A stretch of 64,000 bases of DNA from positions 64,001 to 128,000 of the forward strand of contig CAWBMP010000004.1 of assembly GCA_963790025.1 (NCBI GenBank), read 5' to 3'. This document shows positions 24,001 to 27,000 of this stretch, in pieces (position 1 is the first letter of the stretch; every line of letters begins with the position of its first letter). A program made the position numbers. This DNA is from Nitrospirota bacterium. GTDB lineage: Bacteria > Nitrospirota > Thermodesulfovibrionia > Thermodesulfovibrionales > Dissulfurispiraceae.

Positions 24001-27000
24001 TCCCGTCCATTCTTGGCATTTCAATATCCATGGTGACAACATCCGGCTTAAGGGCCACGATCTTTTCAATCGCTTCAAGTCCATCTCTTGCCGTGCCGAC
24101 AATTTTGATTTCGGGATCAGAGGAAAGCATGGTGGACAACGCATTCCGCATGAAAGCCGAATCATCAACAATAAGAATTTTTACCATCTAGAATCCAAAA
24201 TCTTTCAGCAGATCGTCGACGTCCTCTTGTGAAACTTTTTCCGGGGCTGCAATATCCGCTTTCAGACCCGTCTCAGATTTGGAGCCGAACGTCGTTACAA
24301 GTTTTACCAGCTCTTCTTCGATATCTCCGACAAGTTTTATGACCTTCTTTATAGTCTGCCCTGTAAGGTCCTGGAAAGACTGGGTCGTAAGAATTTCGGT
24401 CAAATCATCCTCAAACCCTGACTTGAATGTCTTGAGATACTGGACAGATTCTTCAGGCCCCTGCAGATTTCGTATATGTGAAGCCAGTTCATCCATGGTC
24501 AATATATGTTTTTCGACTATCCCCATGGTCCGGTTCGCAGCATCTTCCGTCTTCTCGATAACAAACTGCAACTGGTCAACTGCATTAGGCATCTCGGTGG
24601 CCGCCATATCTTTGAGTTTCGGATTAAGCGTTTCCTTAAAGCTTCGTATAGTATCATGGAGCTTGCGCGTTACCTTGCCGACCTCCCGGAAGAGATCATT
24701 CTGTCCTTTCTTCATTATGCTCTGGGCAGCGATGTCGGCTTTCTCAAAGTCCTCGCCTGCAATCGCATTCATGAAGCCGACCATGTCATCAAAAAGAGCA
24801 TAACGAGGATCTGAGGGGGCCACCCCCTGCCGCGAAAAGAAATTTTTAGCTTCGAGCACTTCTTTGACCAGCGTTTCTCCTCCTATCCCCTCAACCTTCT
24901 TAATCACCTCGACCTGATCACCTGTTTCCTTCACTTCATAAATTTCATCTTCAAACATGCTCATGTCTTCGAGAGGGATCAGCTTCCTTGTATCCAGCAG
25001 TACGAGCAATTTCTCGCCGACCTTTGCAACTCCTGACACGATCTCGGAGGTGTTAAAGTCTGTGGGCGGCTCTATCGATGAATCCTCTATCGTAATTACA
25101 CCCGTTATTTCATCAATAAGCACTCCGAAAGTAATCCGGCCGGTTGTTACGACAATGACTTTCTCTCCTATGGAATCTCCTCCGAAGCCGGCAAGTTTTT
25201 TTAGATTGACGATGGGAATAATCCTTCCCCTGAGGTTTGTGATCCCCTCTATATAATGAGGTACCTGCGGCAGTTTGGTCAGGCGCGGCAGATTAACAAT
25301 CTCCTGAACCTTCAGAATAGGAATGGTGTATTCATTATTATTCATGGTAAAACCTATATACTGCATACTTCCTCCTTAAAATACGTCTACAGCGTACTGC
25401 GTTAAAAACCTAAAACCAGTCTTTAAAACACAGAACGCCGAACGCAGTACTCATACCGCTTAAGTCCGTTCAAGCGGTCTTATTCGTAAAAATACTGCGC
25501 GAAAACACTGCAAGATCAAGAATGAGCACGACTCTGCCATCGCCGGTGATTGTGGCGCCCAATATGCCGCACTCTTCAGATTCTATGCCATTGATGGTCT
25601 TAATCACAATTTCTTCCTGTCCGAGCAATTCGTCAACAGCGATGCAGAACCGCCTGTCTCCGACGATCGCGACAAGCACATATGTATGGTCACTGCTCTC
25701 TTTTTTTATGTTCCGCACCGCGAGAACAGCAGACATGTCGAACATCGGGATGACCCTGCCTCTTATAGTCAGCACCTTTTGCCCTGTTATGTCCTTGACA
25801 TCGCTTTTTTTGATCCTGAATGTTTCTTCTATCATGGATTGCGGGACAGCGTAATACTCATCGCCGACCCTGACCATCATGGCCTGCAAAATTGCAAGTG
25901 TGAGCGGCAAACTTATCTTAAAGGTGGTCCCGATATCTTTTTGGGTAATAACTTCAACATAGCCGTTCAGTTTCCCTACGTTAGTTTTAACTACATCCAT
26001 TCCTACCCCACGGCCGCTCAATTCAGTAGAAACCTCTTTTGTCGAGAATCCTGGAAGGAATATAAGGTTTATTGCCGTGTCGTCAGACATCTTCTGTGAC
26101 TCTTCTTCGGATATGAGCCCCTTCGACAACGCCTTCTTCTTTACCGCATTAACATCTATCCCTTTGCCGTCATCCGATACTTCAATAACAATCTGCGTAC
26201 CTCTTTGGTAGGCGCTGAGAATGATCCTGCCCCTTTTGGGCTTGCCTTTAAGTTCTCTTTCAGCAGAAAACTCGATCGCGTGGTCTATGGAATTCCTGAT
26301 GATATGCACGAGAGGGTCGCCGATATTCTCTATAACGGTTTTATCGACCTCCGTATCCTCGCCAAACATCTCCAGATCTATGTCCTTGCCCAGTGTTCGG
26401 GACATATCTCTCACCATTCTGGGGAACTTGCCGAAGACCTTCTGAATAGGCTGCATCCTCATCTTCATAACGGCAAGTTGCAGGTCTGAAGTGACTCTAT
26501 CCAGAAAACCCGTAGTCTCGACCAGGCCTTCCACATAGGGGTCATCAGAATAATTTATATCGAGCTTGGTTGCAAGATTAAGGAGCCTGTTCCGGGCAAG
26601 AACTATCTCTCCGGCAAGGTCCATCACTTTATCAATTCTCGATATATCAACCCTCAGGTGAGAGACGACTTCCCTTTCCTTCGCCATCTCTTCAGCGACA
26701 GAGGAAGGTCCAACGGCAGGTGAAGGTATAGGTTTAGGTTTAGATTCAGGTTCAGATTCGGGTTCATTTGTTTGCTCTGCCTCTGCCTCTTTTTCGGGCT
26801 CTGCCTCAACCTTTACTTCTGCTTCTACTTTTGTTTTTGGCTCTGCCTCTGCCTTTACCTCTGCCTGTGGTTTCGCCGACTCGGAAGCCTTGTCCAGTTC
26901 TGCAAGCAGCGTTGAAATGTCTTCCTCAATGCCATCTTTAATTTTTATATGGAAAATAAGGAGCCGTAAGGTATCGACACTCTTAAGGATGACATCCATT

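Follow-up and report, generated by a model that had tools for sequence, protein, structure and literature searches.

The window analysed here, a stretch of 64,000 nucleotides from a Nitrospirota genome, carries a chemotaxis operon on its minus strand, and all features given below by window coordinates lie on that strand. According to Pfam annotation the gene order is fliA, HEAT, cheR, cheY, cheY, cheA, cheW/Z, cheB. The gene cheR (28237..29067) was recognized by Pfam families CheR and CheR_N. It is followed by a second cheY-like receiver (27670..28110, Response_reg E 5.8e-32; probable start Met20 at 28053), 42% identical to E. coli CheY, and by a cheY of 135 aa (27263..27670, Response_reg E 8e-31), which lies two genes upstream of cheW/Z, just past cheA. 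The product of the latter shares 60% identity with E. coli CheY (E 5e-55) and is the likely substrate of the enzyme discussed below. CheA (596 aa, 25470..27260) has the composition P1-linker-P3-P4-P5 by Pfam families Hpt, H-kinase_dim, HATPase_c and CheW; a P2 family match was not found with Pfam, and residues 121-190 form a low-complexity stretch rich in Ala, Glu, Lys and Pro. The start of cheB (23126..24187, Response_reg and CheB_methylest) abuts the stop codon of cheW/Z, the junction reading TAGATG. The only cheW-type gene of the operon is cheW/Z itself; the genome has further genes for an orphan CheW, for a CheV and for a CheX.

Gene cheW/Z (24188..25366) is a single uninterrupted frame of 392 aa that joins a CheW domain (PF01584, residues 2-130, E 4.6e-33, 114.2 bits against a curated cut-off of 23.5) to CheZ (PF04344, matched in two stretches, E 3.2e-35, 122.3 bits against a curated cut-off of 30.7). 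A preliminary description of the locus had placed both domains in one 392-aa protein, encoded between cheA and cheB in the order cheY-cheY-cheA-cheW/Z-cheB, and had named it the only CheZ-matching gene. All of this was borne out, by the unbroken frame with both matches far above their cut-offs, by the annotated minus strand and by a profile search of the whole 3.45-Mb genome, in which cheW/Z is the sole PF04344 match. The chance that the fusion is an artefact, be it a frameshift, a misassembly or the read-through of two genes, is practically nil, since nothing was found in its favour, the same stop-free single frame recurs in 91 of the 400 further genomes that were sampled in the phylum, fusions span 17 distinct 50%-identity clusters, and each of the 120 best database matches of cheW/Z has both Pfam domains. 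The AF2 monomer model of the protein is of moderate confidence (mean pLDDT 70, pTM 0.37). A look for RNA data sets yielded none, and one DNA run contained 0.26 of the sampled words.

The CheW domain (residues 1-130, 24977..25366) was delimited by PF01584, a PDB match, AF2 and Foldseek. It matches E. coli CheW (PDB 2ho9) with an E-value of 5e-21 and shares with it the KVQEI and NLRG signatures, residues which we take to be important for coupling. The model of the domain, with pLDDT 82-91 throughout residues 1-130, adopts the two-subdomain beta-barrel fold that CheW has in core signalling units: Foldseek aligned it with the CheW chains 6s1k_C (E 6.4e-14, TMt 0.81) and 8c5v_E (TMt 0.85, rmsd 1.9) of such units, as well as with 2ch4_W (TMt 0.85). 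Residues E22, I23 and R46 are invariant in an alignment of 23 diverse fusions, and among 120 close homologues the domain is on average nearly as well conserved (0.80) as the CheZ hairpin (0.86). By sequence and model this half looks functional.

Between the two domains lies a variable acidic linker (residues 131-186, 24809..24976), recognized by its length variation, which amounts to up to about 60 residues among aligned fusions, by the lowest conservation in the protein (0.66-0.71 as compared to 0.80-0.87 in the domains, 120 close homologues) and by low pLDDT (43-52). An AF2 beta-meander at residues 142-172, of pLDDT less than 52, was not relied upon. The linker matched no Pfam family at E-values up to 10, an Atlas search gave no usable match to it, and a GG[EDKR] element occurs in only 66 of the 120 close homologues. 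Linker and CheZ had previously been described as about 90 residues and as starting at residue 224, respectively. These boundaries have to be revised to a linker of about 55 residues (~131-186) and a CheZ-homologous module from about residue 185, because free CheZ-like representatives align to the fusion from residues 167-191 onward and AF2 predicts helices at 187-203 and 207-220 (pLDDT about 71). Residues 187-224 (24695..24808) thus form N-terminal helices of the CheZ module, outside the Pfam match but identified by AF2 and the homologue alignment. An internal start that would yield a free CheZ, in the manner of CheA-short, was also considered and rejected: none of the nine in-frame ATG or GTG codons between residues 120 and 235 has an upstream Shine-Dalgarno-like sequence.

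The CheZ half aligns end to end with residues 16-214 of E. coli CheZ in a pairwise alignment. Its helical hairpin (residues 225-360, 24287..24694) was defined by PF04344, by alignment to E. coli CheZ 16-171 and by AF2, which places the helices at residues 249-299 and 305-360 (pLDDT 71-85); the Foldseek match of the model to E. coli CheZ (1KMI chain Z) is weak (rank 38, E 0.41). The catalytic motif FQDLTGQ (residues 331-337, 24356..24376) was located by alignment to 1KMI chain Z, in which D333 and Q337 pair with D143 and Q147, cited as the catalytic residues of E. coli CheZ in the accessible part of PMC7750401. Both residues are invariant in the 23 diverse fusions and again in a set of 23 that includes divergent types, and 119 of the 120 close homologues have FQD[LIV]TGQ. 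The C-terminal CheY-binding peptide (residues 379-392, 24191..24232), supported by alignment, AF2 and conservation, ends in SQEDVDDLLKDFGF and aligns with the E. coli C-terminus SQDQVDDLLDSLGF. AF2 predicts a helix at residues 380-389, Q380 and L387 are invariant in both alignments of 23 fusions, and the protein ends in GF in 119 of 120 homologues. The earlier claim that FQDLTGQ and the CheY-binding peptide (DDLLKDFGF, residues 384-392) are kept is hence confirmed by the alignment to E. coli CheZ, and the CheZ half, too, looks functional as judged from its residues.

E. coli CheZ (1KMI) and the fusion share PF04344, the catalytic Asp/Gln pair, the helical hairpin and the C-terminal CheY-binding peptide. 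They differ in that the fusion includes a covalently attached CheW domain, has an additional N-terminal helix pair (AF2) and has a hairpin that is about 21 residues shorter. The pairwise alignment has a 14-residue gap in the hairpin opposite E. coli residues 89-102, which include DDWF, and accordingly the D(D/E)WF motif of the hairpin tip (E. coli residues 95-98) is absent from the CheZ of the fusion. In E. coli this tip binds CheA-short, as stated in the accessible part of PMC7750401, and its absence fits a different mode of localisation for the enzyme. According to the same part of that paper, CheZ(HP) of H. pylori, with ChePep, and the polar, CheA-independent CheZ of Azorhizobium caulinodans likewise have no CheA-short site and arrive at the pole in a different way. 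Whereas these enzymes depend on a separate partner or on unknown motifs, the targeting domain of the fusion is on the same polypeptide. A further parallel is CheV, a CheW-receiver fusion in which the CheW domain also introduces a further signalling module to the array; its passenger is a phosphorylatable receiver, that of cheW/Z a phosphatase.

Fusions of the type found in the window are widespread. The preliminary description had counted them in six of 40 genomes; their presence in other Nitrospirota stands, but their extent was understated, given the 91 of 400 sampled genomes. Within families that have the fusion, CheZ occurs solely in fused form in 91 of the 92 CheZ-bearing genomes. In all 29 loci of relatives cheA is directly upstream and cheW/Z occupies the classical cheW slot right after it, with cheB directly downstream in 15 of the 29. 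A second, divergent clade of fusions uses another operon slot, cheY-cheW/Z-cheA, and occurs in genomes labelled Leptospirillia. Nitrospira, of the same phylum, has a free CheZ of 216 aa that lacks a CheW domain and is encoded before rather than after cheA, the order being cheR-cheY-cheZ-cheA-cheV with cheV in the slot after cheA. This free CheZ falls within the same CheZ clade as the fusions (98/97). Since fused and free forms interleave on the CheZ tree (AU p 0.004), the wiring appears to have arisen or disappeared on more than one occasion. In one family (f30) the N-terminal domain seems to have decayed while CheZ is retained: L046 shows a weak CheW match and aligns along the whole fusion profile (313 columns), L047 shows no CheW match and aligns only in the CheZ part. 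This lends partial support to the view that these N-termini are decayed CheW domains.

Databases already show the architecture, with relatives of the fusion annotated as 'protein phosphatase CheZ', and it is named in one clause on rare CheW-like architectures by Vass, Bourret and Foster (bioRxiv 10.1101/2022.05.07.491035), which, in the accessible part of that survey, comes without description, distribution, phylogeny or function. A literature search that included the term 'CheW-CheZ' found no study of the fusion, and it is not mentioned in the accessible part of PMC12887009; Wuichet and Zhulin 2010, Lertsethtakarn and Ottemann 2010 and Cantwell et al. 2003 may mention the architecture. It seems that nobody has studied the fusion.

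We consider it probable, at roughly 70%, that cheW/Z encodes a CheY-P phosphatase covalently anchored in the chemoreceptor array. The N-terminal domain would dock at the site of CheW, binding CheA-P5 and the receptor tips, and the linker, acidic, flexible and about 55 residues long, would let the CheZ module move freely. By homology with the four-helix-bundle dimer of E. coli, two such modules from adjacent fusion proteins probably form a pair. Each C-terminal peptide would then capture CheY-P, whose dephosphorylation would be catalysed by D333 and Q337, and a peptide bond would co-localise kinase and phosphatase, presumably to the physiological benefit of the cell. The outcome, a phosphatase beside the kinase, would be the same as is presumed for E. 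coli CheZ, which CheA-short recruits to receptor clusters. The preliminary description had the phosphatase built into the array through the scaffold protein, not through CheA-short. That part is upheld insofar as both halves look functional and the CheA-short-binding tip motif is missing, with docking itself remaining a prediction; the fusion is, however, neither the only scaffold protein nor the only phosphatase, the genome having the orphan CheW, CheV and CheX. Because another CheW and a CheV are encoded, the fusion is not necessarily a component that bears load in the lattice. They could dilute it there and so set the phosphatase dose, and bulk CheY-P could be handled by cytoplasmic CheX; for Vibrio vulnificus it has been proposed that polar CheZ and cytoplasmic CheX divide the work between them (PMC12887009, accessible part).

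It is unlikely that the fusion acts foremost as the principal coupling protein in the array of this operon and as a staple of the lattice, its CheZ dimers cross-linking neighbouring CheW positions and thereby stabilising or shaping the array, with the phosphatase role second. Such a function would agree with its being the sole gene of cheW type in the operon, found after cheA in 29 of 29 loci, with a linker long enough for bridging neighbours and with E. coli CheZ being a dimer of two hairpins (PMC7750401, accessible part). On the other hand, an orphan CheW and CheV exist, and variation in linker length by tens of residues speaks against a precise structural spacer.

We regard it as quite unlikely that the CheW domain, instead of being a fixed subunit of the lattice, targets the protein reversibly and perhaps in a state-dependent manner, so that the phosphatase would be recruited to the array, or would compete with CheW and CheV, under some conditions only. 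Free CheW and CheV are indeed on hand for building the lattice, and the persistence of CheZ behind an apparently decayed N-terminal domain in L046 and L047 suggests that some lineages can do without a strict scaffold function. The invariant CheW signature residues of window-type fusions argue against this, as does the conservation of the CheW domain, which comes near the value of the hairpin.

A more elaborate combination, distinctly unlikely as a whole, would extend the anchored phosphatase into a push-pull unit. As CheA lacks P2, the CheY-binding peptide of the fusion would be the only CheY docking site of the array, and the nodes of the lattice would concentrate CheY for phosphorylation as well as dephosphorylation. 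The fused form would be ancestral for the CheZ clade, the free CheZ of Nitrospira would have arisen by loss of the CheW domain, and the decayed CheW-like N-termini of the one family would be intermediates.

It is very unlikely that the tethered CheZ has as its main target a receiver residing in the array (CheV, CheB or the second CheY-like protein) rather than motor-binding CheY, and manages a phosphate sink or adaptation instead of signal termination. The genome does have CheV and the operon a second CheY-like gene, and CheZ of H. pylori is reported to be active on one CheV in the accessible part of bioRxiv 10.1101/2022.05.07.491037, but both the C-terminal peptide and the active site follow the classical CheY-directed pattern, and the CheY with 60% identity to that of E. 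coli is encoded just past cheA.

An anchored CheY-P phosphatase remains our preferred reading. Its predicted function is unsurprising, and since the architecture was already present in databases and in one survey clause, we see the finding as a lead for experiment rather than as a new principle. The placement of the phosphatase relative to the kinase is a long-standing question of chemotaxis design, as it affects how fast a signal is ended and how evenly CheY-P spreads in the cell. E. coli co-localises kinase and phosphatase via CheA-short, H. pylori via ChePep. Repeated gain or loss would mark the wiring of phosphatase to adaptor as an evolutionarily changeable trait, and a lineage in which the phosphatase is hard-wired to the array adaptor would offer a natural experiment on what co-localisation gives the cell.

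The gene at window 24188..25366 (minus strand) is one open frame of 392 aa, in which Pfam recognizes a CheW-like domain at residues 2-130 (E 4.6e-33) and, in two stretches, CheZ (E 3.2e-35 for the whole protein), each far above its curated cut-off. On the minus strand the order reads fliA-like sigma factor, 615-aa HEAT-repeat protein, cheR, two cheY-like genes, cheA, the fusion and cheB, followed by a HDOD gene and then flgF, flgG, flgA, flgH and flgI. The preliminary description, which placed CheW and CheZ in one frame between cheA and cheB, is hence borne out, as is its claim of a single CheZ gene: the genome (3.45 Mb, 98.8% complete) has no CheZ (PF04344) match other than the fusion. 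The motifs it named as kept, FQDLTGQ (residues 331-337) and DDLLKDFGF (384-392), are both present and align with E. coli CheZ.

Three neighbouring elements deserve description. Between cheA and the fusion lies a 103-nt spacer (window 25367-25469, minus) that folds into a long imperfect hairpin just before an AAGGAGG ribosome site (-35 kcal/mol, z -2.4, equalled by 5 of 200 shuffles); spacer length varies from ~20 to ~120 nt among relatives, and the hairpin could tune the ratio of CheA to CheW-CheZ. The HDOD gene 3' of cheB (window 22239-23079, minus) is divided between two overlapping frames, one of 123 aa with HDOD profile positions 1-86 and one of 166 aa with positions 103-195. Since its homologue in a same-genus genome is a single 282-aa frame (locus L081:914-1759) and the frame switches at around residue 95 in the first ORF, the window copy is frameshifted, either as a pseudogene or by assembly error. 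The HEAT-repeat protein (window 29064-30911, minus, between fliA and cheR; HEAT_2 E 8e-80, 9 stretches) is encoded by a gene whose stop overlaps the cheR start.

The fusion gene is genuine and conserved. Among 5.8 billion clustered proteins, 1001 matches were found; each of the 120 listed contains both Pfam domains, with a length of 343-411 aa and 62-100% identity, and those that bear a name are annotated as 'protein phosphatase CheZ' of Nitrospirota, Thermodesulfovibrionales or Dissulfurispiraceae. When 50%-identity representatives were searched exhaustively with HMMER, 17 clusters proved to be full fusions by Pfam, among 25 proteins scanned; one includes a member assigned by its label to a Thermodesulfobacteriota MAG, which may reflect transfer or binning. 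Within the phylum, a six-frame search of 400 other, evenly drawn genomes with the window protein recovered the fusion as one open frame, starting at query residue 1 or 2 and reaching residue 364 or beyond, in 91, two of which (G138, G282) match in two pieces in the same frame; the window's family has it in 28 of 34 genomes. In the families with fusions of this type, 91 of 92 CheZ-bearing genomes have CheZ in fused form only, the exception being genome G308. Among 29 fetched loci, cheA lies directly upstream in all and cheB directly downstream in 15. Two genomes, one of the window's genus, contain two copies, and the window's genome one; the second copies (G322:C4:180647-181828 and G268:C21:26905-28080) are just 50% identical to the window protein.

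The stretch from residue 224 onward aligns over its full length with residues 16-214 of E. coli CheZ (27% identity, E 7e-15). D333 and Q337 align with D143 and Q147 of 1KMI chain Z and are shared by all 23 sequences of each of two alignments, and SQEDVDDLLKDFGF at the C-terminus aligns with that of E. coli CheZ. It had been proposed that CheZ begins at residue 224 after a ~90-residue linker. This boundary needs revision: free CheZ-like representatives align from residues 167-191 on, and the AlphaFold2 model places helices at 187-203 and 207-220, so that the CheZ-homologous part starts ahead of Pfam's boundary and the flexible linker spans about residues 131-186. The hairpin is ~21 residues shorter than that of E. 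coli CheZ, whose residues 89-102, DDWF included, fall in an alignment gap. According to the part of PMC7750401 that treats it, D(D/E)WF at 95-98 and the hairpin tip form the CheA-short-binding, localising site of E. coli CheZ; the window CheZ, in contrast, is missing the tip stretch and thus is without that localisation device.

The CheW half resembles E. coli CheW (2ho9; E 5e-21), with KVQEI and NLRG stretches common to both, and E22, I23 and R46 do not vary among 23 aligned fusions whose identity to the window protein is 28-81%. Its model (pLDDT 82-91 over residues 1-130) can be overlaid on the CheW chains in solved structures of core signalling units (TMt 0.81 and E 6.4e-14 for 6s1k_C; TMt 0.85 and rmsd 1.9 Å for 8c5v_E). 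The linker has pLDDT 43-52, differs in length by up to ~60 residues among aligned fusions, and shows the lowest conservation of the protein: across 120 close homologues the top residue has a mean frequency of 0.66-0.71 there, against 0.80 in the CheW domain and 0.86 in the hairpin.

The genome encodes ~11 receptors and four CheW-like domains: the fusion, CheA-P5, an orphan CheW (175 aa, adjoining CBS and glnE genes) and an orphan CheV (324 aa). It also encodes CheX, in a 160-aa frame. The fusion is therefore neither the sole adaptor nor the sole CheY-P phosphatase. CheA (596 aa, window 25470-27260, minus) has Hpt, dimerisation, ATPase and P5 domains; Pfam finds no P2 match in it, and residues 121-190, which join P1 and P3, are Ala/Glu/Lys/Pro-rich low complexity with repeated AEAEP/KVEAE-like units. 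The 135-aa CheY shares 60% identity with E. coli CheY, and the other operon receiver 42%.

PF04344 is present in 208 of 401 sampled genomes, and 12 CheZ loci were fetched outside the families discussed so far. All four loci of family f24 encode divergent CheW-CheZ fusions of 392-450 aa, missed with the window protein as query, in the order fliA-cheY-cheW/Z-cheA, hence in the slot where free cheZ sits elsewhere; one ORF is identical to a protein labelled Leptospirillia, and 33 database clusters of this clade have both domains. The preliminary census of six in 40 Nitrospirota genomes was thus correct as to presence in others and too narrow, given 91 of 400 and this second clade. The four Nitrospira (f29) loci have free CheZ of 198-220 aa, within cheR-cheY-cheZ-cheA-cheV in locus L037. 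Two f30 proteins (L046:3022-4065 and L047:3039-4130, both minus; 347 and 363 aa) carry N-terminally extended CheZ outside che operons. The L046 extension matches CheW by Pfam (E 8.7e-5, just below cut-off) and is included when hhalign aligns L046 with the fusion profile over 313 columns, and is probably a decayed CheW; that of L047 aligns with CheW by neither method and appears unrecognisable. Their active-site motif is FQDLVGQ, and one lies beside a GAF-PAS-GGDEF-EAL protein, the other beside a CZB (zinc-binding) MCP and a LexA-like gene. The f37 locus encodes a 279-aa CheZ directly downstream of a cheY-like receiver gene, with a ~90-aa N-terminal extension and no second Pfam domain found. 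The f26 protein (224 aa; genome G016, L041:3037-3711, minus), with CheA P5 on the same locus, joins a HAMP-like N-terminus (Pfam E 2.1e-7, above cut-off) to CheZ, and may be one more way to put CheZ near receptors.

A CheZ-module tree (52 rows, 190 columns; IQ-TREE, LG+C20+F+G4) unites all fusions, the f30 forms and free Nitrospira CheZ in one clade (98/97), with E. coli and gamma-proteobacterial-type free CheZ outside. Window-type fusions are paraphyletic within it, and the divergent fusion P0217 is sister (100/97) to a group with the Leptospirillia fusions and free Nitrospira CheZ. Canonical fusions as their own clade apart from free forms were rejected by an AU test (lnL difference 36, p 0.0038), a p value weakened by the group having been named after the tree was seen. 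On the CheW-domain tree (65 rows), 17 of 21 window-type domains group together (90/75); of the remaining four, one pair stands apart at the base and the other two fall among free CheWs. Domains from Leptospirillia make up a clade to themselves (100/100), also placed among free CheWs, and holding all fused domains together was not rejected (p 0.20). Together these results, from trees rooted only on E. coli CheZ or CheA-P5 with free forms outside the phylum thinly sampled, indicate that fusion or fission occurred more than once: either an old single fusion was followed by losses of the CheW domain, or at least two fusions arose independently.

The CheW-CheZ architecture has been seen before, in one clause of the preprint by Vass, Bourret and Foster (bioRxiv 10.1101/2022.05.07.491035), yet is unstudied; earlier surveys may list it. 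The companion paper, in the sections available, treats CheZ solely as a separate component, the phrase 'CheW-CheZ' is absent from the papers searched, and public annotation names relatives of the fusion as CheZ. New here are the revised domain boundaries, the absence of the CheA-short motif, a CheA that lacks P2, the presence of CheW, CheV and CheX alongside the fusion, the second, divergent fusion clade in another operon slot, and the interleaving of fused and free CheZ on the tree.

That the phosphatase is built into the array, as the preliminary description held, agrees with domains and motifs and has to be qualified by the orphan CheW, CheV and CheX. The fusion is mechanistically plausible, and an array-anchored phosphatase is the best-supported reading, in which docking, dimerisation, substrate choice and benefit are all inferred. 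The CheW domain would dock in the receptor-array lattice and the linker supply reach to the CheZ module; CheZ modules would pair as E. coli CheZ does, the C-terminal peptide tethering CheY-P and D333/Q337 catalysing its hydrolysis. Whereas E. coli places its phosphatase via CheA-short and H. pylori via ChePep, as described in part of PMC7750401, the fusion would do so via a covalent bond. In Vibrio vulnificus CheZ is polar and CheX diffuse, and clearance of cytoplasmic CheY-P by CheX is proposed in the relevant passages of PMC12887009; on that model, CheX may clear cytoplasmic CheY-P here while the fusion would act at the array.
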